Shown piece after piece: positions 32,374-55,675 of a stretch of DNA of 58,246 nucleotides. How positions within the stretch are numbered: position 1 is the stretch's first letter; the number at the start of each line of letters is the position of its first letter. The translations under genes were made by a program, and so were the position numbers. This DNA is from a virus (lineage: Duplodnaviria; Caudoviricetes): IMG/VR virus record IMGVR_UViG_3300048586_000912, positions 1 through 58,246 of that record. One strand, written 5' to 3'. The notes under the pieces were generated by a model. The model saw only the letters and a list, made by a program, of their open reading frames with translations, did not search any database and was not told where the DNA came from.

Positions 32374-34220
32374 TCGGCGGCCTCCCTGAATTCCCCGGCC
32401 GCGCGGCGCCTGGGCGCGGCATCGGCCATCAGCGCGCCGACGCAGGCGCGCATCTTCGCCACCGAGACGGCATTGCCGATCTGCTTGATCTGCTCCGTCT
32501 TCGTGCCCGCGAACTCGTAGGTGGCCTCCTCGCTGTTGAAGCCCATGGCCGCCGCCAGCTCGTGCGGCTCCAGCATGCGGAAGAGGATGTCGAACTGCCG
32601 CCCCTCTACCGCCACGGGCTCCACCAGGTTGACGCGGCCGGTGGCGCAGATGGTGGGCGCCGGCTCGGCGATATCGTGCACGCGCGGCGCCTGGCCTTCG
32701 CGCTCGCCGAACTGCGCGGCGATGAAGGCGAGCTCGCCGCGATTGGCTCCGGTCACGGTCGGCAACGGCTCGCCGGCATCGCGCACGCGGTCGCTGCCGT
32801 CATGGTGCGTCACCGGCATGACAATGGCGAATTCCCCGCCCTTAGCCGTGGTGAGGGTCGGGATCGGCTCGGCCACGTCGCGCGGGCCCGGGCCGCCGCC
32901 GGATTGCGTCACCGGCACCACCATGCCGAACCGCGCCTTTGCGGTGCAGGTGGGCAGCGGCTCCTGGGCCGAGACACAGGTCTCGCCGGAGCCGGAGCCG
33001 TAATAAGGCGAGATGAGCGCGTGCGCCGCGCCGTTGCCGCCCGTGGTCGCCGTGGGGATCGGGTCCGCGACGGAACGCGGCGCGCCGCCGGAGGCCTGGG
33101 AAAGCACGAAGGGCTGCACCAGCAGCCGGGCGCAGCCGGGGTGAACCTCGGTTGCAGCGCCGCCCGTCGTGATGGTGGGCAAAGGCTCCCGCGCCGAGCG
33201 CGCCGCCCCACTGTTATGCTGGGAAAGCACCAGCGGCTCGGCACAATACAGGTGCGGTGCATGCGCGGTCTGCGTGGGTAAAGGCTCCAAAGCGCTGGAA
33301 GCGGTGGACTGCCCCTTCATGTTGACAATGACCGGCTCGGCCAGCCCGATATGCTGCCCGCCGGCCGCGATGGTCGGCAGCGGCGCGTCGAGGCCTTGTG
33401 CCGCCATGTGGTTGCGCAGCACGACCAGGAACGGCTCTGGCCAGCCGAACTTGACGGCGCCGGCATGGATGCGCGCCAGCGTCTTCGGCGCTAAGGGCTT
33501 CGGCCGGTCGAAGATGGAGCGCCCCTTGATGGACCAGTCGATGATCTCCCGCGCCGGCCGCCAGGGCTGCGCGCCCGCAAAGAGGTCGCCAGCGATCGCC
33601 TCACGCTTCCTGTGCGTCGGCATGGGCCAGCGCACCTTGCGCCCATCCGAGCGCGCCATGAGGATGAAGCGCGAGCGCGTGGTCGCGTCGCCATAGTCGG
33701 CGGCGTTGAGCTTGCGCCATTCCGGCTCGAAGCCGAGGCGCTTCAGGGTCTCGATCCAGGCGTGGAAGTACTCCCCCTTGCGCGAGGCGATGGGCCGCCC
33801 GCTCCTCGGGTCCACCGGCCCCCAGCCGATGAATTCCCAAACATTTTCAATGATCAGCCGCTTCACCCGCAGCTCGGTGAGCCAGGTGATGATGTGCCAC
33901 GGGTCGGAGCGCTGCTGGTCGCTGGTCGGCTTGCCGCCCCGCGCCACCGAATGGTGGGTGCAGGTGGGCGAGGCCATGAGCAGGTCCAGATAGCCCTCCG
34001 GCACCAGCAGATGCGGGCGCACGGTGGCGATGTCCTGGACATAATGCCGGGCCGCGGGATGGTTGCGGCTGTGCGTATCGATCGCCACCGGCCAATGGTT
34101 CACGCAGGTGAGCACGATGTCGGCGGGCGCGAACCCGAGCCCCACCAGCGCCTTGATGGCGCCCGTGCTCGAGCCCCCGGCCCCGCAGAGCAGGTCGGCG
34201 ATGAGGATCTTGCGGCTCAT
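32370..34220 (-). CDS. DNA cytosine-C5 methyltransferase
   Basis: DLLCGAGG, ASPTC, IENV, R.RF, RML...EL, QIGNAV. Confidence 0.93.
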   Translation of the reverse strand: MSRKILIADLLCGAGGSSTGAIKALVGLGFAPADIVLTCVNHWPVAIDTHSRNHPAARHYVQDIATVRPHLLVPEGYLDLLMASPTCTHHSVARGGKPTSDQQRSDPWHIITWLTELRVKRLIIENVWEFIGWGPVDPRSGRPIASRKGEYFHAWIETLKRLGFEPEWRKLNAADYGDATTRSRFILMARSDGRKVRWPMPTHRKREAIAGDLFAGAQPWRPAREIIDWSIKGRSIFDRPKPLAPKTLARIHAGAVKFGWPEPFLVVLRNHMAAQGLDAPLPTIAAGGQHIGLAEPVIVNMKGQSTASSALEPLPTQTAHAPHLYCAEPLVLSQHNSGAARSAREPLPTITTGGAATEVHPGCARLLVQPFVLSQASGGAPRSVADPIPTATTGGNGAAHALISPYYGSGSGETCVSAQEPLPTCTAKARFGMVVPVTQSGGGPGPRDVAEPIPTLTTAKGGEFAIVMPVTHHDGSDRVRDAGEPLPTVTGANRGELAFIAAQFGEREGQAPRVHDIAEPAPTICATGRVNLVEPVAVEGRQFDILFRMLEPHELAAAMGFNSEEATYEFAGTKTEQIKQIGNAVSVAKMRACVGALMADAAPRRRAAGEFREAAE

Positions 34221-35005
34221 GCCACCCTCTCGACAACTTGAGCGCGAGCAGGCAGGCTCGAAGAACGATGGCACGACGATATGAGATACTGCTGGCGGTC
34301 GCGGTGGGAGCAGCCGGAGGCATTTCGGCGTCTGCCGCTGTTATTTGGACAAGCCGCGTACACGACGCGGCCTGGGTATCCCTCATGGGTTCGATTTTTG
34401 GTGGCTTCGTAGGGGGTGTTACGACCCTCGTTGCCGCGTGGATTGCGTGGCGCGGCATCAAAGCTCAGATGCTCGAACAAAAGAGAGCAATGGCATTTCC
34501 GTTTCGCGTACGGGAGTATGAAGCAATCTGCGAACGCCTCCCAGGAACGCAGAACATCATGCTTTTTTCGAACGTAATACTCAATTTGTTTGGAGATGAA
34601 ACGAAAACACATAATGAAATTCGTCAAACTATTTTCTCCTTTTTCGCAAAGAAAAAATTGTCCGAGAGCGAAATTCGATCGTTTCAGATACGGAAATTCA
34701 TCGAAGATCGATGCAGAAACACAAATGTCCTTTTGCAGAATCAATTCATATCCGCACTGGAATTTGTTCAACAAACTGCTGAGATACCGGTTGAGTATGC
34801 GCGCAGCATCCATGCAGATGACGTGATAAAGGAGCAAATTGAAAGTCGCATTTCGAACAATACTGAACAATGCCAATTCGCTATGAAGCGGCTCAGGTCG
34901 GCATGCACTCACATTGCCGAAAGTGCGGATCGTGACGAGCGCCGAAGTCGTGCGCTCAAAAATGAGATCGATGCCGTCCTCGGCGACCCCGCCATAGATT
35001 AACAT
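34217..35005 (-). CDS. Bridging ORF antisense to 34268-35002, coupled to both MTase genes
   Basis: Start overlaps the N6/N4-MTase stop (TGATG); stop overlaps the C5-MTase start (ATGA). Confidence 0.4.
   Translation of the reverse strand: MLIYGGVAEDGIDLIFERTTSALVTIRTFGNVSACRPEPLHSELALFSIVRNATFNLLLYHVICMDAARILNRYLSSLLNKFQCGYELILQKDICVSASIFDEFPYLKRSNFALGQFFLCEKGENSLTNFIMCFRFISKQIEYYVRKKHDVLRSWEAFADCFILPYAKRKCHCSLLFEHLSFDAAPRNPRGNEGRNTPYEATKNRTHEGYPGRVVYAACPNNSGRRRNASGCSHRDRQQYLISSCHRSSSLPARAQVVERVA
34268..35002 (+). CDS. AT-richer antisense accessory membrane protein (moron)
   Basis: 244 aa, two N-terminal TM helices, composition differs from flanks. Confidence 0.75.
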   Translation: MARRYEILLAVAVGAAGGISASAAVIWTSRVHDAAWVSLMGSIFGGFVGGVTTLVAAWIAWRGIKAQMLEQKRAMAFPFRVREYEAICERLPGTQNIMLFSNVILNLFGDETKTHNEIRQTIFSFFAKKKLSESEIRSFQIRKFIEDRCRNTNVLLQNQFISALEFVQQTAEIPVEYARSIHADDVIKEQIESRISNNTEQCQFAMKRLRSACTHIAESADRDERRSRALKNEIDAVLGDPAID

Positions 35006-40072: not shown

Positions 40073-40293
40073 CAGCCCGGCTCCCGTTCCGCGCCGCGCA
40101 CGTCCGGCGGCGGGGCGCCGTGGGCGCGCACCAGGGCCACCAGAAGCGCGGCGCTGCCCTTCACGGCGGCGCGGGCATGGTGCCGGTCGGCCCCCTCGAC
40201 GACGCCGGGGCGCGCCTCGCGCACCTCCAGCGTGCGCCGTCCCGGCTCGCGCCGGCCGAGCTGGCGGTGCATGGGGGCGGACACCTTGCCCAT
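40072..40293 (-). CDS. Hypothetical protein
   Basis: Tightly packed, coupled ORF. Confidence 0.5.
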   Translation of the reverse strand: MGKVSAPMHRQLGRREPGRRTLEVREARPGVVEGADRHHARAAVKGSAALLVALVRAHGAPPPDVRGAEREPG

Positions 40294-40296
40294 GGC

Positions 40297-40800
40297 TCAG
40301 ACCACGCGCAGCGGCTTGGCGGCGCAGGAAGGGCCGGCGGCGCGCACCGCGGCGAGGCCGGCGCGGAAGCCGCGCACGCCCTCCTCCATGGTGGACGCCG
40401 CGCGGTCGAGCGCCTCCGCCTCGGCGGGCGTGATGGTGCCGTCCTCCAGCGCCGAGGCCATGTGGATGGAAAGCTCGCCCTGCGCCCGCAGCAGAGCCGA
40501 ATGGCGCGCATTGATGGAAGCGGCCGAATTCATGGCCGCCTCATCGGTCAGGCGGCGCCCGTGCGCCTCGGCCATCACGGTGGTGACCAGCGGCAGGCCG
40601 CAGTCCGCCTCCAGCGCATAAGCGGAGGCGAGGTCGATCACCTCCGGGTGGCTCGCGTGCTGCCAGCGCGAGACCTCGGTCTTCGAATGGGCGCAGATCT
40701 CGCCGGCGCGCACCACGCCGCCGCAATGGCGCACGAGGTCGCGCGTCACGGCCTTGATGCGCAGAAGGAACGGATCGGAAAGGGCGTTCGGCTCGCTCAT
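40297..40800 (-). CDS. Phage regulatory CII-like protein
   Basis: IKAVTRDLV..CGG, LEADCG.P.VT, ALEDG.ITPAEA. Confidence 0.75.
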   Translation of the reverse strand: MSEPNALSDPFLLRIKAVTRDLVRHCGGVVRAGEICAHSKTEVSRWQHASHPEVIDLASAYALEADCGLPLVTTVMAEAHGRRLTDEAAMNSAASINARHSALLRAQGELSIHMASALEDGTITPAEAEALDRAASTMEEGVRGFRAGLAAVRAAGPSCAAKPLRVV

Positions 40801-40830
40801 GGCTGCTGCCTCGTGGTGTCAAGCGAAAAC

Positions 40831-40869
40831 GCGTTTCCCGGTCCGGGAAAACGCAGTGCGTTTTCCCGG
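40831..40869. promoter_or_regulatory. Overlapping palindromes upstream of the cII-like gene
   Basis: CCGGGAAAACGC-AGT-GCGTTTTCCCGG (40843-40869) plus an alternative arm GCGTTTCCCGG. Confidence 0.55.
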
Positions 40870-40911
40870 TGTGGGAAGGCTTCGAAGGTGGTTCAGTGGT
40901 GCGCGTTCAGG

Positions 40912-41487
40912 TCACGGCGGCGGGCGTTCCCTCCGCGGCACGATCGGTTCGGGATGCAAGCTGGACGGGAGGTCGGGATGGTCGAGCGGGTGGGGCTCAA
41001 CGTGGGGCAGGCCGGCTACCAGGCCTGCCTCCTGGTGGTGATCGCCAAGATGGCCCGGCGCATCGCCACCCACGATTCCGGCGGCCACGCCTTCCTCGGC
41101 TTCGTGCGGCACCACCTCATCGCCGGCGCCGCCGCCCAGCACCAGGCGGATGCGCCCATCCAGGCCGAGTTCCAGCTTCTCGCCGACCTCGTCCGCGACG
41201 CGGCGCGCGAGCCAGGGCCCGAGCGCCTCCGACGGCAAGGTGGCGGCGCCGATCAGAAGGGCGCGCGTGTGCAGCCGCGCCGCCGTGACGATGTCGAGAA
41301 GCAGTGAGGCGTCCACATGCTCCAGCATGAGATCGAGCGGCACGTGCAGCACCAAGGCGCCCTCGCGCACCTCGAAGCGGGCGACGGCGGCAAGGTCCGC
41401 CAATTCGACGAGCGCGAAGTCGCGCTCCGCCTGCGAGAGGGAGGTGCCGAGCCGCGGCCGCTCCGAGATGTTGCGCACCGCGCTCAT
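40912..41487 (-). CDS. Hypothetical protein, 3' part overlapping a plus-strand ORF
   Basis: GAGGA SD and ATGA coupling. Confidence 0.5.
   Translation of the reverse strand: MSAVRNISERPRLGTSLSQAERDFALVELADLAAVARFEVREGALVLHVPLDLMLEHVDASLLLDIVTAARLHTRALLIGAATLPSEALGPWLARRVADEVGEKLELGLDGRIRLVLGGGAGDEVVPHEAEEGVAAGIVGGDAPGHLGDHHQEAGLVAGLPHVEPHPLDHPDLPSSLHPEPIVPRRERPPP
40978..41307 (+). CDS. Antisense hypothetical protein
   Basis: GGAGG SD before ATG 40978. Confidence 0.4.
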   Translation: MVERVGLNVGQAGYQACLLVVIAKMARRIATHDSGGHAFLGFVRHHLIAGAAAQHQADAPIQAEFQLLADLVRDAAREPGPERLRRQGGGADQKGARVQPRRRDDVEKQ

Positions 41488-41840
41488 GCCGATTCCTCGC
41501 AAGGCAGGCCAACCTTGAACACCGGCTGGAAGGAGAAGAACCCATGACCAAGGCGACGGACGACGAATTGCGGGGGCGGCTCATGGCCCTCGAGACCATC
41601 GTGGTGACGCTGGCGGCGCACATGGCCGCCCACACCTCCGATCCCGTGCTCTTCACCGCACAGGTGATGGACGATGTGGAACGCGCGCTGCGCAACGCCG
41701 AGGAGACGGCGCCGAAAGGAATGGAGAAGACGGCGCGCTACGCCGTCGCCAGCTTCGAGGCGCTCTCCGCCGGGATGCTGGCCCACCTGAACCGCTACGC
41801 GGTCCCGCAAGGCAAGGGCTGACCAGAGAAATCGGCTCAT
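41484..41840 (-). CDS. Bridging ORF antisense to 41544-41822
   Basis: GGAGG SD; ATGA overlaps at both ends. Confidence 0.35.
   Translation of the reverse strand: MSRFLWSALALRDRVAVQVGQHPGGERLEAGDGVARRLLHSFRRRLLGVAQRAFHIVHHLCGEEHGIGGVGGHVRRQRHHDGLEGHEPPPQFVVRRLGHGFFSFQPVFKVGLPCEESA
41544..41822 (+). CDS. Antisense small helical protein
   Basis: AGGAG SD; normal codon usage; protein-like sequence. Confidence 0.75.
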   Translation: MTKATDDELRGRLMALETIVVTLAAHMAAHTSDPVLFTAQVMDDVERALRNAEETAPKGMEKTARYAVASFEALSAGMLAHLNRYAVPQGKG

Positions 41841-42253
41841 GCCGCCTCCTCCCGCGCGGCCGCGGCGAAGTCCGCGAGCCAGCGTTTGACGAAGCGGCGG
41901 ACGTACCAATCTTCGGGCGACATGCCCCCGAGATCGTGAAGGGACAGATCATGAAGACCGGTCAGACGCTTGAGGACCTCGAAATCAAGCTGCAGGGCAA
42001 GCTCCTCGCCCTTGAGCTGGTGCTCATCCAGATCCTGCGCACCGTGCCCGAAGCCGACAAAAGGCTCGGCATGGCGCTGCGCGCGCTGGGCGAAAACAGC
42101 GAGGATGTCACGGCGCTCCAGGCGGCGCATGACCACGAAAAGCTTGCGCCCCATATCCGCGAAGCGGCGTTCTGGCACATCGAGGAGATGGCCCGCGCCT
42201 TCGACGACATGGACGACCTCGATCCCGGGCTCGATGACGTTTGACGCGCTCAT
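41837..42253 (-). CDS. Bridging ORF antisense to 41951-42244
   Basis: Coupled to the cro stop (GGAGGCTGCATGA); ends EEAA with an ATGA overlap. Confidence 0.4.
   Translation of the reverse strand: MSASNVIEPGIEVVHVVEGAGHLLDVPERRFADMGRKLFVVMRRLERRDILAVFAQRAQRHAEPFVGFGHGAQDLDEHQLKGEELALQLDFEVLKRLTGLHDLSLHDLGGMSPEDWYVRRFVKRWLADFAAAAREEAA
41951..42244 (+). CDS. Antisense small acidic helical protein
   Basis: MKTGQTLEDLEIKLQG...; protein-like sequence. Confidence 0.7.
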   Translation: MKTGQTLEDLEIKLQGKLLALELVLIQILRTVPEADKRLGMALRALGENSEDVTALQAAHDHEKLAPHIREAAFWHIEEMARAFDDMDDLDPGLDDV

Positions 42254-42540
42254 GCAGCCTCCTCTCGCGCCGTCGGGGCGTCGTCATTGGCGGGCTTGGG
42301 CGGCAAAGGGCGCGGTTCGGGGCGGGGAATGTCGCCGGGCCAGTCGGCGCCGTCAGGCCAATTGGCAGAGAACCATTCCAGGGCGCGGCCGAGCCGCCGG
42401 GCGCCGATCTCGCTGCCACCCCGCAAGGCGGCCAGCCGCTTCCCATCGGTGAAGCAACGCGACGAAACGGTCGCCTCGGCGAGGCCGGTGGCGGCGCAAT
42501 AGCGCTCTGCGAGACGCAGGAGTTGGGCAATGGCATCCAT
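42250..42540 (-). CDS. Cro-like protein
   Basis: Divergent from cI; TVSSRCFTDGKRL, WFSANWP....WP. Confidence 0.8.
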   Translation of the reverse strand: MDAIAQLLRLAERYCAATGLAEATVSSRCFTDGKRLAALRGGSEIGARRLGRALEWFSANWPDGADWPGDIPRPEPRPLPPKPANDDAPTAREEAA

Positions 42541-42549
42541 GACGATGGC

Positions 42550-42609
42550 ACAATGCGGTACATATACCGCACCTGTCAAGCACCCGGACTACGACGGTAC
42601 ATTTACCGC
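42550..42609. promoter_or_regulatory. OR-like operators and pR promoter
   Basis: GCGGTACATATACCGC 42555-42570 and ACGGTACATTTACCGC 42594-42609; minus-strand TTGACA-18-CATTGT. Confidence 0.85.
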
Positions 42610-42646
42610 TAAAGCCCCCGCTCTGGCGCGGTCATATTCCCACGCC

Positions 42647-43408
42647 ATGAATGCCGCCGACCTCCTGTCCCGCATTGATCGCCGCCTGCTGGCGCTCGGG
42701 TTGTCCGAGCGCGCGGCGAGCCTGAAGGCGCGCAACAAGCCGGACATCATCCGCAACATCCGGCGCGCGGTCGAGAAGTCCGAGCCTTATGACCCCCGCT
42801 CCGGCACCATCGAGGCGCTGGCCCCGGTGCTCCGCACCACCACGGAGTGGCTCGTGCACGGGACGGGGCCGGAGGAGATTTCCGGCGCCGAGGCCGCAAG
42901 GGGCGTGCTCCAGATCGCCGAGCGCCGCGCCCGCAAGGCAGCGCGCGGCGCGGCAGATGCTCATGCAATTCGCGAGATCGAGATCCACGCCGGCATGGGC
43001 GGCGGCGGCGTGCCCGCGCGCGAGATGGCGCAGATCGTCGGCCGCGAAAGCTACGCGGCCGACGCCGTCCGCGGCTATTGGGTGTTTCCCGACCACGCGT
43101 TGCGCGCGCTCGGCCTTGATCCGAGCTTTGCGGATATCGTGCCGGGTGTCGGCGATTCCATGGAGCCGGACATCCGCAGCGGCGACTGGTGCGTGATTGA
43201 TCGGCGCCATCGCGTGCCCTCGCCGGATGGCATCTATGCGCTTTGGGATGGCTTCAGCGTCGTGTTCAAGTCGCTGCAACTGATCCCCAACAGCGACCCA
43301 GTGAGCGTACGGATCATCTCCAAAAACACCGCCTATGAGAGCTACGAGCGCGCGCTTGAAGAGGTGGCCGTGATCGGCCGCGTGGTCAGCCTGGTTCGGG
43401 CGCTCTAG
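42647..43408 (+). CDS. CI-like repressor (HTH + S24 peptidase)
   Basis: HAGMG cleavage site, GDSMEP catalytic Ser, VFKSL Lys. Confidence 0.92.
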   Translation: MNAADLLSRIDRRLLALGLSERAASLKARNKPDIIRNIRRAVEKSEPYDPRSGTIEALAPVLRTTTEWLVHGTGPEEISGAEAARGVLQIAERRARKAARGAADAHAIREIEIHAGMGGGGVPAREMAQIVGRESYAADAVRGYWVFPDHALRALGLDPSFADIVPGVGDSMEPDIRSGDWCVIDRRHRVPSPDGIYALWDGFSVVFKSLQLIPNSDPVSVRIISKNTAYESYERALEEVAVIGRVVSLVRAL

Positions 43409-44802: not shown

Positions 44803-44830
44803 TCGCCCATCACACCCGATGGGGACACCA

Positions 44831-45229
44831 ATGCAGCTTCCCAACCAGATCACCGACGCCGAGGCCGCCGGCCTCATGGCGATCCTCGCGCCGCTCAAGC
44901 CCCGGCTCGCCGATCTTGAAGGCAACATCGACAACATCGAGGACGCGGCCCGCGTGCTGGCGGACCTCACCGCCGCATCGAACCAGGCGGAGACGCTGCG
45001 CGACGCCATCGACGCCGACACGCACGGCGCCGAGCACGCGCAGGCCGAGGACCTTGCGGCGCACCAGGAGGGGCTCCTTTCCGAGGAGCAGACCGCAGCC
45101 GCCCTCCACGCTTTGCATGCGCTGCGCGCGCTGGAGGCGCTGAAGACCGAGGTGGACGCCGCCCTTGCCGCCTTCCGCGCCGCGCTCGCCGCCGCCGCGG
45201 CTGCCGAGCAGACCAAGGACGCCGCGTGA
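44831..45229 (+). CDS. Hypothetical helical protein
   Basis: First ORF after pL. Confidence 0.7.
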   Translation: MQLPNQITDAEAAGLMAILAPLKPRLADLEGNIDNIEDAARVLADLTAASNQAETLRDAIDADTHGAEHAQAEDLAAHQEGLLSEEQTAAALHALHALRALEALKTEVDAALAAFRAALAAAAAAEQTKDAA

Positions 45230-45630
45230 TGGCGCCGGTCTATCCCACCTTCGCGGCGCGGGACGTGGTGCGCTGCATCCACCCCACGGGGTTGCTGGTG
45301 AAGGGCCAGATCTACCTCGTCTCGGGCGTGGAGCCGGCCGAGGATGCCCTGGCTGCCGCGCGCGGCGAGGGGCCCTATGTGCACCTCGACCGCATCAGCG
45401 GCAGCTTCATCGCCCAGCGCTTCGTGCTGGTGGCGCGCGGCCCCGCGAACGACGACGAGGCCGTCGACATCCCCCGCCGCATGGCGGACGTGATGCGCGA
45501 GCGCGTGGCCCTGGCGGGCTCCTGCGACGCGCACGATTTGGCCCGCGCCGGATTCACCGCCGCGCAGATCCTCGAATATGCCGACGAGGCCCGCGGCATC
45601 GCCGGCCCGCCTCCCGCCGAGGTGGCGTGA
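45229..45630 (+). CDS. Hypothetical protein
   Basis: TGATG-coupled. Confidence 0.7.
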   Translation: MAPVYPTFAARDVVRCIHPTGLLVKGQIYLVSGVEPAEDALAAARGEGPYVHLDRISGSFIAQRFVLVARGPANDDEAVDIPRRMADVMRERVALAGSCDAHDLARAGFTAAQILEYADEARGIAGPPPAEVA

Positions 45631-45947
45631 TGCAGCGGGTGTCGTTCCCCCTCATCGGCCACGCGCTCGCAGCGATGGCGGCCGGCGCCGTCCGCGCCAT
45701 GGGCACGCCCGAACTCAAGGCCAAGGCGGAGGCGCTCGCCGCCGCCCAGGCCCGCCTCGCGCTCCAGGTGCCGCGCGGCCGCAAGGGCACCGTCCTGCGC
45801 CGCGCGGCGTACCGCGACCGCTCCCGCTACAGCGGCGCCATTCTCCGCGCCATCCGCGCCGAGCGCGGATGCGGTCGCCCGCCCAAGGTGCTTGCTGCCC
45901 GCCGGGCCAAGATCGCGGCGGCGCGCCAGATGACCGAGGCGGCGTGA
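45630..45947 (+). CDS. Hypothetical basic protein
   Basis: TGATG-coupled; MQRVSFPLIG... Confidence 0.6.
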   Translation: MQRVSFPLIGHALAAMAAGAVRAMGTPELKAKAEALAAAQARLALQVPRGRKGTVLRRAAYRDRSRYSGAILRAIRAERGCGRPPKVLAARRAKIAAARQMTEAA

Positions 45948-46249
45948 TGGTCCGCACCCTTGGCCTCCGCCTCACCAACCCCTTCCGGCGCTACTGCCCC
46001 CCGGCGCCGGGACATGCGGAGCCGCGGATGCCGCGCGCGCCCGAGCAGGTCGCGCGGCGCGCGGCCGTTGCGAACGGCGCCACGAACATCTGCGGCTCCG
46101 CGCCTTCCCCCTACCCCACCGATCCGGCGGCGGCCTTCGTGCAGCAGTGCGCCCTTGGGGCCGTGCACATCGGCGCCGGTGTCGGCCTGCTGTGGCTCGC
46201 CGGCGCCGCCGCCCTATTCCAGGCCACGCGCGAGATGATGGAGGTGTGA
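45947..46249 (+). CDS. Hypothetical protein containing an in-frame repeat element
   Basis: TGATG-coupled; APEQVARRAAVANGA. Confidence 0.55.
   Translation: MVRTLGLRLTNPFRRYCPPAPGHAEPRMPRAPEQVARRAAVANGATNICGSAPSPYPTDPAAAFVQQCALGAVHIGAGVGLLWLAGAAALFQATREMMEV
46040..46081 (+). repeat. CCCGAGCAG-hairpin-GCGAA element
   Basis: CCCGAGCA GGTCGCGC GGC GCGCGGCC GTTGCGAACGGCGCC. Confidence 0.85.
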
Positions 46250-46252
46250 CCC

Positions 46253-46531
46253 ATGGCGCTCATCACCTATTCGCCGTCCGGCACCGGGCCCGGCGCCATC
46301 GCCAAGCTGGTGTGGGCCGCGAGCCAGGCGCTGCTGCAGGCGGCGCGCGACGGCCAGCGCGAGGCCGCCGAGCAGATCGGCATGTGGCTCGCCAACACGC
46401 GGCCCGACCCGCGCTGCACGCCCCGCGTCCAGCGCACCATCGACCGCAGCCTGGAAATCGCCCGCGCCCGCCTCGGCGGCGCCGGGCCGGATTTCCAACC
46501 CATCCAGCCCGACGACGGAGAGGCGGCATGA
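46253..46531 (+). CDS. Hypothetical protein
   Basis: GGAGG SD; in operon. Confidence 0.6.
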   Translation: MALITYSPSGTGPGAIAKLVWAASQALLQAARDGQREAAEQIGMWLANTRPDPRCTPRVQRTIDRSLEIARARLGGAGPDFQPIQPDDGEAA

Positions 46532-46884
46532 GCGCGCCGGACAAATTTCTCACCGACGCGGCCATGGCGATCCCCAAGGAAGCCGCCGCTGCTCTCGGGG
46601 CGTCCGTGCGGCGGGCGTCAGACCTGCTGAATGAGGCGGCCCAAGGCCTCGGCCTCGTGCTCGATGCGCATAATTGCCCTTTGGTCCAGGCCCTTACCGC
46701 CAATGTCTTGGCCGAGATGTCCGGCGGGATGTACGCCCGGGCCGCATGGGTCGCGGCGGCCACCGGCGCCGAGCGGAAGGACGCCATGGAGCTGATCCAG
46801 TCCGCTTTCCTGAAGGGCAAGGAAGAGGCCCTCGACACCATGATGGCCGCCCGGCGCGCCGCTCAAGGGGAAACCATCCAATGA
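46528..46884 (+). CDS. Hypothetical protein
   Basis: ATGA-coupled at both ends. Confidence 0.6.
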   Translation: MSAPDKFLTDAAMAIPKEAAAALGASVRRASDLLNEAAQGLGLVLDAHNCPLVQALTANVLAEMSGGMYARAAWVAAATGAERKDAMELIQSAFLKGKEEALDTMMAARRAAQGETIQ

Positions 46885-47585
46885 GCGCCCGCACCGAAAA
46901 CCCCTGGATCCAGACCGGCACCGGCCGGGCGCTCGACCTCATGGCGCCGACGGCGGCCATGATCGACCTCGACACGGACGTGGCCGAGGCGCTCGCCCGC
47001 GAGCCGCGCTTCGGCGGGCACGTGCGCGGCGGCCCCTACAGCGTGGCGCAGCACATGGTGCTCGGCGCCGACGCCATCGTCGAGCAGACCGGCAGCATCG
47101 AGACCGCGCGGGCGTTCATCCTGCACGACGCGCACGAATATGCCTGCAAGGACATCATGACGCCGCTCGCCAAGGCGCTCGACTTGCGCGTGCGTACCAT
47201 CGCATCGGCGCGGGTGCGGCGGGTGCTGCCGACCTCATCGCAGGACGAGGTGGACCGCATCAGCGTGGGGCTCTTCCACGGCGCCCTTCACGCCCTGAAG
47301 GCCGACCTCGACCGCGCCATCCACGCCGCCGCCGGCCACCCCTGGCCGCTGGCGCCGGAGATCGCCAAGCGCGTGGCCGAATGGGACCTCGCCATGCTGG
47401 CGGCCGAGCGCCGCCATCTGCTCGCGCCTTCGCCGCAGCCGTGGGACCCCGCGGTGGAGGATTGGGCGCCCGCGAAGCTCAAGGGCCGCATCCAGGTCTG
47501 GCCCTGGCCCAAGGCCGCCGACGAATGGCGCGCGCGGCTCCACAGCTACTTCCCCCACCTCGCCGCCGCCAAGCGGGCGGCGTGA
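46881..47585 (+). CDS. HD-domain 5'-deoxynucleotidase (YfdR/YfbR-like)
   Basis: WIQT.TG, RFGGH, YSVAQH, LHDAHE, D..ML..ERR. Confidence 0.85.
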   Translation: MSARTENPWIQTGTGRALDLMAPTAAMIDLDTDVAEALAREPRFGGHVRGGPYSVAQHMVLGADAIVEQTGSIETARAFILHDAHEYACKDIMTPLAKALDLRVRTIASARVRRVLPTSSQDEVDRISVGLFHGALHALKADLDRAIHAAAGHPWPLAPEIAKRVAEWDLAMLAAERRHLLAPSPQPWDPAVEDWAPAKLKGRIQVWPWPKAADEWRARLHSYFPHLAAAKRAA

Positions 47586-47607
47586 CGTGCCCGCCGTCGC
47601 GAACGGC
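47569..47607 (+). repeat. Degenerate copy of the CCCGAGCAG element
   Basis: 3' half GCCCGCCGTCGCGAACGGC conserved. Confidence 0.6.
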
Positions 47608-47627
47608 ACAAACCAAAGGAGAATTCC

Positions 47628-47966
47628 ATGGCCCCGCGCCTCATCCGCAGCTTCTTCCAGGCTGCCGGCCTCATGCACCGCGGCAAGGTGGACGAGCGCC
47701 TCAATGCCGAGATGGGCAAGCTGCTCGAAGCCATCGAGCAGCACCCGGACGAAAAGGTGAGCGGCACGCTCTCGCTCTCCGTCACCGTGACCAAGGTCGG
47801 CGACCGGCTCTCCGTCCTGCCAAAGGTCGAGACCAAGCTGCCGAAGGAGAAGGGCTTCTCCGAGACCACCTTCTGGCTGGTCGACGGCGCGCTCTCGCTC
47901 GAGCACCCCGACCAGGCCGACATGTTCACGCCCCGCGACACCGCCCGCGCGCCCGCCGCCGGCTGA
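47628..47966 (+). CDS. YfdP-like hypothetical protein
   Basis: GTLSLSV...KLPK...FW...G.L..EHP.Q; precedes DUF2303. Confidence 0.7.
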   Translation: MAPRLIRSFFQAAGLMHRGKVDERLNAEMGKLLEAIEQHPDEKVSGTLSLSVTVTKVGDRLSVLPKVETKLPKEKGFSETTFWLVDGALSLEHPDQADMFTPRDTARAPAAG

Positions 47967-48009
47967 ACGCCCCCTCCCCGCGCTCCAGCGCCAACCCGAA
48001 GGACCGACC

Positions 48010-49056
48010 ATGACCGAAGAGACCAACAATCCGGACGCCGAAACGGCCGCTCCGGAGCGGGACGATCGCCCGCATCTTTCCATCGGCACGCTCATCGCCG
48101 AGCGGATCGACCAGAAGTACACGCCCTATTCCGGCGAGCTGCGCGGCGACGCCATCGACCGCATCAAGGCACTGGCGGCCGAGGGCACCGAGCCCAAGCT
48201 GGTGATGATCCCCACCGCCGGCTTCGGCCCCGATCTGCCCTCGCAGGTGCCCGTTTTGTGGGACCGAGCGGCGCAGGAGCCGATCCCCGTCATCGATATC
48301 ATCGAGGACGCCCGCCAGGCGCCTCGGCGCCGCGGCACCGCCAAGGCGACGACCCTCGCCTCGTTCGTGGATCTCGTGAACCGCCACAAGGATTCGGACT
48401 CGGCGATCTTCGCCGCGACCTCCTGGCCCGGGCCGAAGCTGACCGCGGTGATCGACTATCACACGCGCGACGGCGAGGCCCGGCGCGCGGCGCACCGCAT
48501 CGTCTACGACTTCCCCATCACCAAGGAGTTCAACGCCTGGATCCAGGGCGATGGCAAGCCCATGAGCCAGGTGGCGTTCGCCGCCTTCCTCGAGGACCAC
48601 GCGGCCGAGTTGGCGGCGCCCTATGATGCCGAGAAGTCCGAGATCGAGCCGCGCTTCAAGGAGCGCTTCGCGACGCCGGCCGAGCTGCTCGACCTCTCGC
48701 GCGAACTGGAGGTCCACGAGGGCTCGAAGGTCAAGCAGGGCGTGCGCCTGCAGACCGGAGAGCGGGTGGTGGAGTTCACCACCGAGCACACCAACAGCAA
48801 GGGCGAGAAGGTCAACATTCCCGGCATCTTCATCGTGTCGATCAAGCCCTTCCTGGAGGGCGACCGGCCGGTGGAGCCGGTGCGGCTTGTGGCGCGCCTG
48901 CGCTACCGCATCAGCGAAGGTGCGCTGCTCTGGTTCTACTCGCTCTATCGCTGGGAAGAGGTGCTGCGCGAGCGCATCCAGCTCGACCTCCTGCGCACCG
49001 CGAAGGAAACCGGACTGCCCTGCTTCGAGGGCACCCCGGAGATGGCGGCGGCCTGA
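48010..49056 (+). CDS. DUF2303 (YfdQ-like) protein
   Basis: TLASFVDLVNRH, LTAVIDYH, QVAFAAFLED, ARLRYR. Confidence 0.88.
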   Translation: MTEETNNPDAETAAPERDDRPHLSIGTLIAERIDQKYTPYSGELRGDAIDRIKALAAEGTEPKLVMIPTAGFGPDLPSQVPVLWDRAAQEPIPVIDIIEDARQAPRRRGTAKATTLASFVDLVNRHKDSDSAIFAATSWPGPKLTAVIDYHTRDGEARRAAHRIVYDFPITKEFNAWIQGDGKPMSQVAFAAFLEDHAAELAAPYDAEKSEIEPRFKERFATPAELLDLSRELEVHEGSKVKQGVRLQTGERVVEFTTEHTNSKGEKVNIPGIFIVSIKPFLEGDRPVEPVRLVARLRYRISEGALLWFYSLYRWEEVLRERIQLDLLRTAKETGLPCFEGTPEMAAA

Positions 49057-49122: not shown

Positions 49123-49371
49123 ATGACCTCCGCCGCCACTCCCAGCGCCCGCGCCGAGCACCTCGAGCGCCGCCGCCGCGACGTGGCGGCGGACTATGCC
49201 AAGGCCGCGCGCCGGCATGCCCCGCGCGCGGCCCTCGCCACTCGGCTGGTGCGCGCCACCTGCGACGTGCTGCGCGAGGAAATCCGCGCCGCCAGGCGCA
49301 AGGCCCAAGCCCGCCGCATCGACCGCGAGGCCGAGGCCATCACCGCCGATCTGTTCGGAGAGCGGCCATGA
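49123..49371 (+). CDS. Hypothetical protein
   Basis: AGGA SD; in operon. Confidence 0.6.
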   Translation: MTSAATPSARAEHLERRRRDVAADYAKAARRHAPRAALATRLVRATCDVLREEIRAARRKAQARRIDREAEAITADLFGERP

Positions 49372-49682
49372 CCGACGACCGCGCGCTCTGCGCCGCCCGC
49401 ATCGCGGCGCTGCAGGATGTCTCCTTCCAGCTGGGCGCGCGGCACAAGTCGTTTGCCCGCTCGGTGAAGCACAAGGCGCCGGCCGAGCTCTCCCCAGCCC
49501 AATACGCCCACGTCGCCCGCCTTTGCTGGCGCTACCGGCGGCAACTGCCGGCGCACCTGGTGCCGCCAGCCGATCCGGACGCCGGCCAGCGCGCGCCGCT
49601 GCGGGCCGCCTCACCGCTGGTGGTGGTCTCCAATCCGCCGCCGCCCGACGACCTCTTCACCCTCATGGGGACAAGAAAATGA
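49368..49682 (+). CDS. Hypothetical protein
   Basis: ATGA-coupled; WRYRRQ. Confidence 0.65.
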   Translation: MTDDRALCAARIAALQDVSFQLGARHKSFARSVKHKAPAELSPAQYAHVARLCWRYRRQLPAHLVPPADPDAGQRAPLRAASPLVVVSNPPPPDDLFTLMGTRK

Positions 49683-50794
49683 AGCTCACCGCCGAGCGCG
49701 ACGCGCTCCTCTCCGCCGTCGAGCGGGCCGCCCGCGTGATCGAGCGGCGCAACACCATCCCCGTGCTTGCCACCATGAAGGTGGTGGCGGAGAAGGGCCG
49801 CCTGGTGCTCACGGGCACGGACCTCGACATGGAGGTGACCACCACCTGCCCGGCCGAGGTGGCGCAGGCCGGCGGCGCCGCGATGCCGCTCACCGCCGTG
49901 GAGTTCCTGAAAAAGCTGCCGGCCGGCGCGCAGGTGGAGATCACGTCCGAGAAGGGCCGCGCCACGCTCAAGGCGGGCCGCAGCCGCGCCACGCTCAACA
50001 CGCTGGACGTGGAGGATTTCCCGGAACTGCCCGCCGTGGCCGGCGAGGCGGCCGAATTCCCGCTCGCGGCCTCCAGCCTCGCCGCCATGATCGACCGAGT
50101 GAGCTTCGCCATCTCCACCGAGGAGACGCGCTATTACCTCAACGGCATCTATCTGCATGGCGCCGCCTGCGAGGACGGCCCGCTGCTGCGCGCCGTGGCG
50201 ACGGACGGCCACCGCCTGGCGCTGCACAACATCCTCGCACCCGAGGGCGCTTCGCCCATGCCGGGCGTGATCGTGCCGCGCAAGGCGGTCGCCGAGATCG
50301 CCCGCCTCATCAAGCCGTTGGGCGACGAAAAGGTGACGCTGCGCGTGAGCCCGACGCGGCTCTCGCTGACCGCAGGCGTCACCACGCTGGCCACCAAGCT
50401 CATCGACGGCACCTTCCCGGACTATGACCGCGTCATCCCCAAGGACGGCGAGTGCCGCGCCCTCGTGGACGCGGCGGCGCTGGACGCAGCCGTTGCGCGG
50501 GTCTCCACCGTCTCCGGCGAGCGCGGGCGGGCGGTGAAGTTCGCCTTTGCCGCTGGCCTCCTCACCCTCTCCGTCACCAACCCCGACACGGGCGAGGCGC
50601 GCGACGAGGTGGAGGCCGAGTGGTCCGCCCCGCCGCTGGAGATCGGCTTCAATGCCGGATACGTGGCCGACATCCTCGGCGCTTTGCCCGGCAAGGCCGC
50701 GCGGCTCGCCATGAAGGATCCCGGCTCCCCCTGCCTCATCACCGCCGAGGGCGACACCGCGTCGCTCTTCGTGCTCATGCCGATGCGGGTGTGA
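49679..50794 (+). CDS. dnaN: DNA polymerase III beta sliding clamp (phage copy)
   Basis: ERRNTIPVL, TDLD, STEETRYYLNG, ATDGHRL, LIDGTFPDY, VLMPMRV. Confidence 0.96.
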   Translation: MKLTAERDALLSAVERAARVIERRNTIPVLATMKVVAEKGRLVLTGTDLDMEVTTTCPAEVAQAGGAAMPLTAVEFLKKLPAGAQVEITSEKGRATLKAGRSRATLNTLDVEDFPELPAVAGEAAEFPLAASSLAAMIDRVSFAISTEETRYYLNGIYLHGAACEDGPLLRAVATDGHRLALHNILAPEGASPMPGVIVPRKAVAEIARLIKPLGDEKVTLRVSPTRLSLTAGVTTLATKLIDGTFPDYDRVIPKDGECRALVDAAALDAAVARVSTVSGERGRAVKFAFAAGLLTLSVTNPDTGEARDEVEAEWSAPPLEIGFNAGYVADILGALPGKAARLAMKDPGSPCLITAEGDTASLFVLMPMRV

Positions 50795-50796
50795 CC

Positions 50797-51222
50797 ATGA
50801 AAATCAATCGAACGATGTCCCTCGCATCCGAACCGTTCCTCCTTGAGAACGTGATGATCGGCCTAAGGACAGGACAGTGCGACGGCGAATTCCCGCGCCA
50901 CCGCCCCGACCCAGACGGCCACGAGGTGGTCGCCTATGTGGGTCAATCCATCGCTCCGTTGGGCTTTGTGACCATGTATCCGGTCTCGGACACCCGCCTT
51001 TGGGTAGACCTCCTCTATGTTCTCCCGCCCGTTCGGCGAAGAGGGATCGGCCGGGCGTTGCTGGCGGAGGTCCGGCGGTTCGCCGCGGAGCAAGGGCTGT
51101 CGCGGATCGAGTTCGGCACGCTCACCTCCAATAAGCCGATGCTGGCGCTGGGGCGCGCCGCAGGCTTCGCCATCGAAGGCCACATTCTCGCGGCCGCACT
51201 TGGCCAGTCAGAGGCGGCCTGA
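50797..51222 (+). CDS. GNAT acetyltransferase
   Basis: LYVLPPVRRRGIGRALL acetyl-CoA motif; N..M......GF. Confidence 0.85.
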   Translation: MKINRTMSLASEPFLLENVMIGLRTGQCDGEFPRHRPDPDGHEVVAYVGQSIAPLGFVTMYPVSDTRLWVDLLYVLPPVRRRGIGRALLAEVRRFAAEQGLSRIEFGTLTSNKPMLALGRAAGFAIEGHILAAALGQSEAA

Positions 51223-51225
51223 GCC

Positions 51226-51615
51226 ATGGAACATATCTCCTTCCTCATCGGCGCCTGCGCGCTCGCTCTGTTCCTCGGCATCCTCGTCGGCATCGCCATC
51301 GGCGCGAACGTGCGGCCCGACACCGAATACCAGCAGTGGCTTCGCGGCTATTGCGACGGCTTCCGCCACGCGCTCACGTCCGTCGAGACGGGCCTCGACG
51401 AGATCCCCGCCGCCATGGTCGCCGGGCGCGAGGTGGTGAAGGCCTCGGGCTCCTATGGCGGCCCGGGCATCGTGCGCGGCGCGGCCCTCACCGTCTCCGG
51501 CGAACCGCGCCTCGTGGTCGGCCACAAGCTGGCGGACGGCTTCGGCGAGCTCCTCCACATCTACCGCCCGCAGGACATCACGCCGGCGGAAGCAAAAGAG
51601 GAGGCGGCAGCGTGA
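51226..51615 (+). CDS. Hypothetical protein with N-terminal TM
   Basis: In operon; hydrophobic N-terminus. Confidence 0.6.
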   Translation: MEHISFLIGACALALFLGILVGIAIGANVRPDTEYQQWLRGYCDGFRHALTSVETGLDEIPAAMVAGREVVKASGSYGGPGIVRGAALTVSGEPRLVVGHKLADGFGELLHIYRPQDITPAEAKEEAAA

Positions 51616-51959
51616 ACCACTTTACAGCGATCAACGATCTGTTTGGCGAAGCGCCGACCCGCCGAATTCTCAGGGGTGACAAGAAAAAGAAGGCGGAACC
51701 CGCACAACATATTATCGAATTTCCCGGCGGTGCCATCGAATTGTCTCGCCTGGATGATGGGTCCTATTGGGCTCATATCATCATCAACCGTGGCCAAGCA
51801 CTTTCGTGCCTGAATGGTCTCAACAGCGCACAGGGCCGTGTCGTCGACAGTCGGATTGATTGGGCAGAACGCAGGATGGAGGCCATTCCGGGTCTGCCAG
51901 ACGGGGCGCATCTGACGCAAATCGCAGTCCGGATCATGCCGGAGATCCCCCATGGCTGA
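51612..51959 (+). CDS. Hypothetical protein (AT-richer)
   Basis: GTGA-coupled; IEFPGGAIELSR. Confidence 0.6.
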   Translation: MNHFTAINDLFGEAPTRRILRGDKKKKAEPAQHIIEFPGGAIELSRLDDGSYWAHIIINRGQALSCLNGLNSAQGRVVDSRIDWAERRMEAIPGLPDGAHLTQIAVRIMPEIPHG

Positions 51960-52929
51960 CCGCACCGCCATCGAATGGGCGCAGGCGACCTGGAATCCCG
52001 TCGTCGGCTGCTCGCTGGTCTCGCCCGGCTGCACGAATTGCTATGCCATGCGCATGGCGGCGCGGCTCGAGGTCATGGGCCTGCCGGCCTATGAGGGCAC
52101 GACGCAGCCGAGCGCCGCCGGGCCGGTGTGGACGGGCAAGGTGCGCCTCGACCGGCGAGCGCTTTTCAAGCCGGCCGACTGGAAGAAGCCGCGGCGAATC
52201 TTCGTCAATTCCATGAGTGACCTGTTCCACCCGGCCGTCCGCGCCGAGGACATCCTCGATGTGTTCACCGTGATGGCGGCGGAGGGCCGGCACGAGTTCA
52301 TGGTGCTCACCAAGCGCGGCGACCGCATGCGCGACTTCGTCACCGGCCGCGAGCTGGTGTGGGACATCTACGCCAATTGGTCCACCTTCAGCGGCGGCCC
52401 GGTCGAGGTCTCTTCCTGGCCGCTGCACAATGTGCTGCTCGGCGTCTCGGTGGAAGACCAGCGCCGCGCCGATGAACGGCGCGGGGATCTCGCGCACCTC
52501 GCCGCGCTCGGCTGGCGCACCTTCGTGAGCTACGAGCCCGCGCTTGGCCCGGTGGACTGGACGGGCTGGGATTTCCTCGCCGGCCTCATCTCCGGCGGCG
52601 AGAGCGGCCCGCGCGCCCGCCCCTCGCACCCCGACTGGCACCGCGCCGCCCGCGACTTCTGCGCCGCCCACGGCATCCCCTATTTCTTCAAGCAGTGGGG
52701 GGAGTTCCTGACACCAGACCAGCGCCACGGGATCACCTTTGGCACCGACGCCGAAGGTAAGCCGATAGACATCGGAACCGCGCTTCGTCGAGGGCAAGCC
52801 GTCGCAATAGATGGCTTTTGGGCTTACCGCGTCGGCAAGGCCAAGGCCGGCCGCCTCCTCGACGGCCGCGAGCACAACGCCCTGCCGCTCTCCCGCGAAG
52901 ACCTCAAGAGCCTGAGGATGGCAGCATGA
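51952..52929 (+). CDS. Gp37/Gp68 (DUF5131) three-Cys radical-SAM-like protein
   Basis: TWNPVVGCSLVSPGCTNCYA, FVNSMSDLFH, GGESG, FFKQWG. Confidence 0.92.
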   Translation: MADRTAIEWAQATWNPVVGCSLVSPGCTNCYAMRMAARLEVMGLPAYEGTTQPSAAGPVWTGKVRLDRRALFKPADWKKPRRIFVNSMSDLFHPAVRAEDILDVFTVMAAEGRHEFMVLTKRGDRMRDFVTGRELVWDIYANWSTFSGGPVEVSSWPLHNVLLGVSVEDQRRADERRGDLAHLAALGWRTFVSYEPALGPVDWTGWDFLAGLISGGESGPRARPSHPDWHRAARDFCAAHGIPYFFKQWGEFLTPDQRHGITFGTDAEGKPIDIGTALRRGQAVAIDGFWAYRVGKAKAGRLLDGREHNALPLSREDLKSLRMAA

Positions 52930-53225
52930 GCATCGCAACATGCAAACGCATCGCCAAGCAGGATGACCGCCAAGCCGTCGTGCTCATCACCGTGGCGCGC
53001 GACGGAACCGTGACCGTGTCGAGCTATGGCGAGAACAGGGCAAAGTGCCACGCCATCGGCATCTGGGCGCAGGGCCTGTGGGACCACGCCGTCAGCACCG
53101 TGCCGTTCCGCACCATATTCGGGTGGGGCAACGACGGAACGCCCCTTCCTCTCACCCCCGAAGAGCGCGCCGGCCTCTCGCCTGCCGGGCGCGCCTATGA
53201 CGATTCCATGAGGCTCAAGCCATGA
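52926..53225 (+). CDS. Hypothetical protein
   Basis: ATGA-coupled at both ends. Confidence 0.6.
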   Translation: MSIATCKRIAKQDDRQAVVLITVARDGTVTVSSYGENRAKCHAIGIWAQGLWDHAVSTVPFRTIFGWGNDGTPLPLTPEERAGLSPAGRAYDDSMRLKP

Positions 53226-54235: not shown

Positions 54236-54238
54236 GCC

Positions 54239-54718: not shown

Positions 54719-54721
54719 CCC

Positions 54722-55673: not shown

Positions 55674-55675
55674 GG

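Follow-up and report, generated by a model that had tools for sequence, protein, structure and literature searches.

We analyzed the interval between cro and cII in a 58-kb provirus of the Caudoviricetes with a GC content of ~70% (IMG/VR record IMGVR_UViG_3300048586_000912; the whole record of 58,246 nucleotides (nt) is termed the window). This decision (switch) region contains six open reading frames (ORFs), m1, m2 and m3 on the minus strand and p1, p2 and p3 on the plus strand, which the initial annotation had described as three nested sense/antisense pairs. Patterns of codon conservation point instead to a two-strand mosaic with partial antisense dual coding. By these patterns p2, p3, m1, and m3 as far as about residue 115 are under selection, p1 is ambiguous, and m2 is not selected as a protein. 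The 1.4-kb cro-cII interval would be a mosaic of small accessory cassettes carried on both strands, in which some minus-strand ORFs may serve the passage of ribosomes. The ORFs are as follows (aa, amino acids; SD, Shine-Dalgarno sequence).

41837 to 42253, minus strand: m1, a helical early protein, judged real from its relatives, its invariant residues and a tail outside p1
41951 to 42244, plus strand: p1, a possible gene inside m1 and a candidate for antisense dual coding
41484 to 41840, minus strand: m2, putative bridge ORF antisense to p2, with ATGA coupling at both ends
41544 to 41822, plus strand: p2, a 92-aa gene, judged real from codon constraint, relatives and SD
41137 to 41487, minus strand: m3 head, a predicted alpha/beta domain (residues ~18-117), supported by relatives, invariant residues and an AlphaFold2 (AF2) model
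40912 to 41136, minus strand: m3 tail, putative read-through antisense to the p3 core, apparently unconstrained and modelled as disordered
40978 to 41307, plus strand: p3, wholly inside the m3 ORF, a gene judged real from wobble-position substitutions and a conserved ATG and SD

The six ORFs and the three SD+ATGA junctions lie exactly where they were initially placed. m1 (42253-41837), m2 (41840-41484) and m3 (41487-40912) are 138, 118 and 191 aa long, respectively. On the plus strand, p1 extends from ATG at 41951 (GTG at 41936) to 42244, p2 from 41544 to 41822, and p3 from 40978 to 41307. Each minus ORF fully encloses one plus ORF (p1 in m1, p2 in m2, p3 in m3). Coordinates modulo 3 place all three pairs in register, with codon position 2 facing position 2, and GC content at position 2 (GC2; likewise GC1 and GC3 below) is identical within the pairs p2/m2 and p3/m3. 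The junction strings GGAGGCTGCATGA, GGAGGCGGCATGA and GAGGAATCGGCATGA also read as annotated. p2 and p3 are preceded by clear SDs (GGAAGGAGAA and GGGAGG), in agreement with the prediction of at least two, and p1 by a weaker one (AAGGGA). The gene caller of the source called m1, p2 and m3, and not p1 and p3. None of the six ORFs had an above-threshold family match in Pfam, PHROGs, PADLOC or NCBIfam, and blastn of 40800-42600 against the phage collection gave no match.

Nested antisense ORFs as such are not beyond chance at 70% GC, because the in-register antisense frame was also stop-free in 17 of 19 control genes of 80-200 codons; the initial caveat on high-GC antisense frames was well founded. 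Among 46 window genes defined by GC3, 32 had such a frame, and TTA, CTA and TCA together accounted for 20 of 13749 codons. Relatives of the locus were fetched through p2 (L009, Xanthobacter; L010, Ancylobacter; L012, metagenome), m3 (L013-L015, viral contigs) and m1 (L016, an Azorhizobium metagenome-assembled genome, and L018). Both ORFs were intact for m3/p3 in the window, L013, L014, L009 and L016, and for m1/p1 in the window, L016 and L018; at this GC content, such intact pairs are weak evidence of dual coding. The cro relatives L001-L006 carry none of the six ORFs. In L004, a relative with 57% GC, cro is ATGA-coupled to a 264-aa gene (L004 4246-5040, plus strand; 3976-5043, minus strand). 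The in-register antisense frame of this gene is open for 355 codons, yet junk-like, a warning that long shadow ORFs arise without any opposite-strand gene.

Since paired frames share codons, the frame test counted codons whose amino acid survives in one frame only. Three comparisons gave 26/7, 24/4 and 24/4 conserved codons for p2 only versus m2 only. p2 has GC1/2/3 values of.68/.46/.90. Its relatives include 92-aa proteins at 74 and 60% identity, in addition to L009 and L012, and its SD was kept in 4/4 loci. It belongs to an unnamed atlas cluster of 93 members; a scan of viral contigs with the p2 protein alone gave no match. The codon counts argue that p2 is a real gene on the cI strand under selection. 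In m2, GC1 is above GC3, and the same counts indicate that m2 is not a protein under selection and that its amino acids are unconstrained. In L009, L010 and L012 the equivalents of m2 begin on the preceding stop or close to it, and the ATG of the bridge is in register with p2 in 4/4 loci, with spacers of 15, 18, 6 and 135 nt.

p3 was assessed by comparison of the window with L013, whose DNA is 92% identical and aligns without gaps. The 20 substitutions within the 330 nt of p3 fell at p3 codon positions 3, 1 and 2 in the numbers 16, 1 and 3. There were 11 p3-only conserved codons and no m3-only ones, and identity was 95.4% for p3 versus 84.1% for m3. The adjacent cII, used as a control in the same comparison, showed the mirror pattern (5/21/5). 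Because the L013 substitutions sit mostly at p3 third positions and the codon counts are 11 versus 0, p3 is judged real along its whole length and under purifying selection throughout. Its ATG and SD were kept in 5/5 loci. p3 was not detectably related to p1 or p2, and its recognition in the atlas was low.

The upstream part of m3 is evidently also constrained. Relatives of the m3 head comprise six database proteins and three loci, and E42, G43, L45, V49, P50, H57, V58, W92, D99 and G111 are invariant in 9/9 sequences. W92 is encoded by TGG in 6/6 loci. A p3-only account of this residue would require the Pro codon CCA each time, and CCA is rare, making up 9% of Pro codons. In the first 60 codons of m3, which lie outside p3, four comparisons favored the minus frame by 29 to 15; residues 61-117 lie opposite the 3′ half of p3. 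In an AF2 model of the m3 protein, predicted local distance difference test (pLDDT) values were 84-93 at residues 21-90 and 31-47 at residues 118-170, which are modelled as disordered. A search with the m3 model against PDB yielded no fold match at E 0.001 or better. Between the window and L013, residues 116-170 showed radical replacements. In the same segment, between the window and L014, conserved m3 residues used the same codon in 21/22 cases versus 19/28 for p3; this test was poorly calibrated, with controls likewise above expectation, and is given no weight here. A long-range preference for m3 obtained with alignments of the m3 frame only had mostly gone when symmetric codon alignments were used. 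On these sequence and model data, it is only as far as residue ~115 that m3 appears to be a real protein. m3 and p3 are best read as convergent genes, each ORF running on through the other. Both frames are probably constrained over ~55 codons, and m3 ends in ~75 residues of apparently unconstrained read-through.

m1 likewise has the features of a real protein family. Eight predicted proteins at 33-93% identity were found as relatives, and D33, M34, G67, G69, D107, L108 and G110 are invariant in 8/8. A p1-only account of M34, G67 and G69 would require CAT, GCC and CCC every time; the shares of these codons within their codon families are 48%, 45% and 31% (25 control genes). The m1 tail (residues 102-138; SPEDWYV, with W/F/Y exchanges) lies outside p1 and had more conserved codons in the minus frame only (7 v 2, 4 v 3). 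The AF2 model of m1 was fairly confident (pLDDT 73.6; helices at 84-95), and its fold had no PDB match at E 0.001 or better. The m1 profile found 2 matches in 401 genomes of the family and none in 401 of the order. These findings suggest that m1 is a real protein family. One m1 relative, P0015, is a 225-aa ORF whose first half is antisense to a p2-like gene and is fused in frame to an m1-like part, that is, the same cassettes in another order with no stop between them.

Signals for p1 were mixed. Its ATG with an SD-like stretch was found in 3/3 loci with the frame open, p1-only codons exceeded m1-only codons (10 v 6, 14 v 9), and its N-terminal 25 columns resembled p2 (hhalign 74.8%, E 2.6e-5). 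A search of predicted proteins with p1 gave no match, not even p1 itself, and a scan of viral contigs with the p1 protein alone also gave none. GC1 equals GC3 for p1 in L016 and L018; with this symmetric composition, GC3 fails to separate m1 from p1. p1 is possibly a real gene, with the chances about evenly balanced.

Could all six ORFs be functional proteins, forming three full antisense dual-coding pairs? Constraint in both frames in parts of m3/p3 (W92, D99 and G111 of m3 against wobble in p3), and perhaps in m1/p1, would agree with this, and long antisense genes that are translated and under purifying selection have been reported in Pseudomonas aeruginosa (PMC8850804). We consider this improbable in view of the m2 counts (7, 4 and 4 against 26, 24 and 24 for p2) and m2 composition (GC1 above GC3), the radical replacements between close relatives and the low pLDDT in m3 residues 116-170, and the lack of a predicted-protein relative together with the ambiguous frame signals of p1. 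It was on m2 and the last ~75 residues of m3 that a reading as three like pairs failed. The opposite extreme, a single coding strand with all other frames as shadows, is more doubtful still, to the point of being very unlikely. Shadow ORFs are the default at 70% GC and the gene caller took m1 and m3, not p1 and p3; an all-minus reading is nevertheless refuted by p2 and p3, and an all-plus reading by the invariant residues and tail of m1, the m3 head and W92. The initial annotation had named translation of one strand only as an outcome that would speak against it, and substitution patterns on both strands contradict such an outcome. Its expectation of at least two real proteins among the plus ORFs was borne out for p2 and p3 by codon constraint, and that of genes on both strands by p2 and p3 on the cI strand and m1 and the m3 head on the cro strand.

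The minus ORFs are joined at three junctions.

42248 to 42270, minus strand: J1 (cro/m1), SD GGAGG and ATGA; one of the 23-nt linker copies, also a mosaic breakpoint
41835 to 41857, minus strand: J2 (m1/m2), exact copy of the 23-nt linker
41484 to 41505, minus strand: J3 (m2/m3), GAGGAATCGGCATGA; a mosaic breakpoint

The 23-nt core GCGCGGGAGGAGGCGGCATGAGC occurs twice, with 0 mismatches at m1/m2 and 2 at cro/m1, versus 0.01 occurrences expected; the junctions are beyond chance. The last ~20 codons of cro (..IPRP..PLPP..ANDDAPTAREEAA, then stop) are part of the shared junction module. The C-terminal 13 residues of cro, and 44-69 nt of DNA, are common to the otherwise unrelated cro genes of L013 and L014, whose common end is ANDDAPxAREEAA and a stop, followed by ATGA. 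The junctions of L009 form a family of their own, cggaggtcgcggcATGA.

Cassette gain and loss breaks exactly at these junctions. L013 lacks the m1/p1 and p2 cassettes and has m3 immediately after cro; its similarity to the window ends at 41498. Two runs of DNA contigs, X1 and X3, gave corresponding results. X1 holds the window's own sequence plus a variant contig that joins 42275 to 41498 with 7 other letters at the joint, a cro-m3 form without the m1/p1 and p2 cassettes. One X3 contig matches only 41482-41852 (the p2 cassette, with flanks unlike those of the window) and another only 42248-42600. The three breakpoints are the three junctions. Junctions conserved in relatives with different cargo are what the survey suggested in the initial annotation had looked for. 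One hallmark of morons, seen here, is that closely related phages differ in having the cassette and that the breaks fall at its ends. The other hallmark, an own promoter and terminator with deviant composition, was absent from the p1-p3 cassettes: the GC content of p1-p3 is 0.64-0.73, like that of the surroundings, no promoter-like site of their own was found in the cassettes, and the sole terminator-like site falls outside them.

A coupled chain of ORFs crosses the opposite-strand genes in all related loci that are complete. In 7/7 of these, each ORF from cro to the last stop before a conserved hairpin starts in the stop region of the preceding ORF, as the initial annotation had proposed for the window. 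Tracing was permissive (start at -16 to +12 nt from the stop, GTG and TTG allowed, ORF of at least 20 aa). ATGA was used at 15/18 chain junctions in the complete loci versus 14/56 links elsewhere in the window, and at 3/3 window junctions stop and start overlap or abut with an upstream SD. The last stop of the chain lies 42 nt before the hairpin that precedes cII. Minus-strand gaps over p2 are filled by ORFs without a conserved product in the window, L009, L010 and L012; the chain includes a 31-aa linker ORF in L009 and a TAGATG junction in L010. In L014, an unrelated 186-aa gene on the opposite strand is spanned by two bridge ORFs (58 and 145 aa) that use different frames. They are joined ATGA-ATGA-ATGA, and the frame switches exactly where the in-register frame is blocked. 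Bridges are coupled at both ends in the window, L010 and L014. L010 also has a small plus-strand ORF (..MAKRTGNSLQAHLAAMDMVLLALVARG..) at 4120-4500, crossed by the last minus ORF of the chain (4509-4180, minus strand), which may be another case of this arrangement.

These observations suggest a model of early expression. On the minus strand, ribosomes would proceed from cro to m1, m2 and m3 by ATGA stop/start overlap behind GGAGG. On the plus strand, p3, p2 and perhaps p1 would be small genes oriented towards cI. At each interruption of the early operon by a plus gene, the minus strand would carry a bridge, here m2 and the last ~75 residues of m3, whose amino acids would be immaterial and whose open frame and coupled ends would be retained. 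Rho acts on nascent untranslated RNA (PMC11551753, PMC5909445). Bridges might keep the early mRNA covered by ribosomes, so that neither Rho-dependent termination nor decay of untranslated RNA would occur, and would hand ribosomes to the next real gene. The SD+ATGA linker would act both as coupling signal and as homology for cassette exchange between phages. A transcript begun close to cII would pass through cro in antisense and run into cI, the direction in which the plus genes are oriented. We slightly favor the view that bridges are selected for an open frame and coupled ends.

Codon use in the plus genes bears on this point. An in-register stop in the opposite frame requires that the sense gene carry TTA, CTA or TCA. 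Expected counts were modelled from each gene's own use of A-ending codons and calibrated on 26 neighboring control genes. In 11 plus-gene instances (1099 codons), none of the three codons occurred versus 14.3 expected from the model and 10.1 after calibration (P 4e-5). For the five instances that had been located by way of a different gene, the count was 0 versus 5.9 expected (P 0.003). Compared with controls of like expectation, 7/7 instances versus 4/10 controls lacked such codons (Fisher, p 0.017), and the version with 5/5 gave p 0.042.

A second site shows the same architecture, as initially noted.

34217 to 35005, minus strand: second putative bridge ORF (262 aa), flanked by two DNA methyltransferase genes and antisense to a plus ORF at 34238-35002

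This ORF begins with TGATG on the stop of an N6/N4 methyltransferase gene and ends with ATGA into the start of a C-5 methyltransferase gene. The insert at 34238-35002 is deviant in composition (50% GC), and its plus ORF encodes 254 aa with two predicted membrane helices. It contains no TTA, CTA or TCA versus 7.9-9.6 expected (P 2e-5 by permutation, 1e-3 calibrated). Both in-register frames are open over the 254 codons, and the other four frames hold 6-12 stops. The ORFs were absent from the protein collection under the starts tried.

The strongest alternative is that the two-strand genes and the linker mosaic are real and the bridges are an unselected by-product, so that translation of m2 and of the m3 tail has no consequence. 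Antisense frames of GC-rich genes are usually open, the cassettes bring their own SD+ATGA ends, and the first stop is then the TGA of the next ATGA. We regard this as the less probable account, and a serious one. Several observations weigh against selected bridges. Besides the open antisense frames of 17 of 19 control genes, P(0), the probability of no stop, lies at 0.44-1 for the window's p1-p3, where openness is uninformative, and p2 on its own gave a P of only 0.025. The codon model overshoots, with 45 observed versus 63.7 expected in controls (factor 0.71), and the 4/10 comparable controls likewise have no antisense stop. The real chain gene of L004 has 0 antisense stops versus 4.6 expected with a junk-like antisense frame, and the L014 moron as a whole showed no avoidance (3 versus 4.9 expected). 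The instances are few and partly related by descent, and some loci were found with an m1 or m3 query, a kind of search that takes an open frame for granted. Under the permissive rule, tight coupling occurs all through the phage genome, and only 12/42 control start points ended at once, so that chance could account for some of the links. The amino acids of m2 are unconstrained, no relatives of the 34217-35005 site were found among viral contigs or in the phage collection, and translation of every frame in the region is something that we infer from sequence.

A by-product does not readily account for the pooled avoidance (0 versus ~10 expected), for the 50% GC insert in which just the two in-register frames are open, for the L014 chain, which shifts frame through ATGA exactly at the in-register block, for the coupling of bridges at both ends in three loci, or for the bridge ATG in register with p2 in 4/4 loci. 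The bridge idea of the initial annotation, then, stood in its unbroken chains and in the statistical sign of openness, and the nesting within 40912-42253 carried no statistical weight. We put forward more tentatively, at rather less than an even chance, a general design in this phage group that would combine passage-serving bridge ORFs, a portable SD+ATGA docking linker of ~20-70 nt, and inserts that avoid TTA, CTA and TCA.

The chain is flanked by the following genes and elements.

42530 to 43408, plus strand: cI-type repressor (S24 peptidase; PF00717 8e-11, phrog_4 3e-25)
42250 to 42579, minus strand: cro-position gene (phrog_7669 1e-24; no helix-turn-helix (HTH) family match)
40904 to 40977, strand unassigned: conserved ~70-nt element covering the end of the m3 ORF and the upstream region and SD of p3
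40830 to 40869, minus strand: conserved hairpin 40869-40843 and overlapping alternative 40855-40830, then T-rich TTTTCGCTTG (RNAalifold on 5 loci)
40297 to 40800, minus strand: cII-like activator (phrog_101 8e-18), the first gene past the hairpin, which begins a second coupled chain to 30412

The repressor gene on the plus strand and the phrog_7669 gene on the minus strand face each other with their 5′ ends as a divergent pair, a layout also found in L009, L010, L012, L013, L014, L016 and L018. The CII-type gene lies downstream of cro on the same strand. The cro-position protein had no Pfam match, and the cro-position proteins of relatives had only sub-threshold HTH, Cox or YdaS matches. The longest cI and cro ORFs share 50 nt at their 5′ ends (42530-42579); the true starts probably lie further in (cro ATG 42540 is one example), leaving ~100 nt for divergent promoters.

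Located after the final stop of the chain and ahead of cII, the hairpin occupies a tR1-like position. Three GC pairs of its stem are AU pairs in L014 and L015, with both sides altered, which is compensatory. The alternative fold is terminator-like; the two folds at 40830-40869 overlap and are mutually exclusive. An Rfam search gave just two sub-threshold chance matches. In the element at 40904-40977, the window and L014 differ at 2 of 63 nt, though the flanks are ~50% identical as protein, and blastn matched it to both L014 and L015. It encodes the last 21 codons of m3 (..LHPxPIVPRRERPPP, then stop), and PPP and a stop likewise close the final chain ORF of L010. The element is a candidate promoter or leader of p3, or a further linker; no recognizable boxes were seen in it. 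A promoter scan found no sigma-70-like site in 40200-42800, and the locus yielded no nut site, N-like gene, PRE-like promoter or CII box. The term 'lysogeny genes', first applied to p1-p3, has their orientation as its sole basis; promoter and family searches found nothing, and the term could not be upheld.

The layout can be compared with that of lambda, whose immunity region comprises cI, PRM/PR, cro, nutR, tR1 and cII, and where PRE fires back through cro into cI. As in lambda, a divergent pair of S24 repressor and cro-position gene is followed by a cII-like gene with a conserved hairpin just before it. The plus genes between cII and cro point at cI and recall PRE, with a transcript that would run the same way. 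The cro-cII interval here holds genes on the cI strand and a coupled ORF chain, neither of which is known from that interval of lambda, and the cro-position protein is phrog_7669 and not a recognized HTH Cro. Overlap of stop and start (ATGA, TGATG) is the usual sign of translational coupling in phage and bacterial operons. The same features are seen here, the stop overlapping the next ATG and the SD lying inside the upstream ORF. What differs is that m2 and the ORFs over the L014 and 34217-35005 inserts appear to encode nothing conserved and would provide passage rather than product.

The modular theory of temperate phage exchange reportedly goes back to Botstein, and morons are accessory genes in temperate phages. 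Phage mosaicism is treated, for example, in PMC9836094 and PMC3945230. The present cassettes resemble morons and modular exchange in that accessory genes are present or absent with breakpoints at gene boundaries in short shared sequence. They differ from morons in that the GC content of p1-p3 matches the surroundings, no promoter or terminator of their own was detected, and they are inserted against the direction of the operon. They differ from usual modular linkers in that the shared linker appears to double as a ribosome hand-over signal. In P. aeruginosa, two pairs of long antisense overlapping genes are described as translated and under purifying selection (PMC8850804). The present pairs resemble these as GC-rich opposite-strand ORFs with signs of selection in both frames (~55 codons of m3/p3; possibly m1/p1). 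Differences are the location in a phage early operon, the convergent 3′ overlaps of small genes and the unconstrained m2 alongside; dual coding is here deduced from sequence, and translation is reported for the P. aeruginosa pairs in that source.

The lambda-like layout, ATGA coupling, morons and modular exchange, and antisense overlapping genes are thus all known parts. What seems new is their use: coupled ORFs that seem to serve passage, and one linker that seems to serve both recombination and ribosome hand-over. Keyword searches of the literature found no printed description of bridge ORFs, which is not proof of absence. If selected, bridges would be a class of reading frame that annotation cannot name, translated yet no gene in the usual sense. 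They would explain the tolerance of opposite-strand accessory genes in operons that need continuous translation, and would place a measurable constraint, three forbidden codons, on inserts. In the junctions, the 'linker' that the modular view of phage evolution postulates takes concrete form as sequence, possibly with an added role in translation. Whether or not the bridge idea holds, m3/p3 lends itself as a small test case of antisense dual coding in which both frames appear constrained, and related prophages in cultured Xanthobacter (L009) and Ancylobacter (L010) strains make the arrangement testable. For annotation, p3 is an example of a gene missed by the source's gene caller.

Long runs of overlapping or abutting ORFs span nearly the whole provirus (40800-30412, minus strand; 44819-49056 and 49196-57737, plus strand). 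From cII onwards, eleven consecutive ORFs followed one another with no gap of more than 6 nt under the permissive tracing rule.

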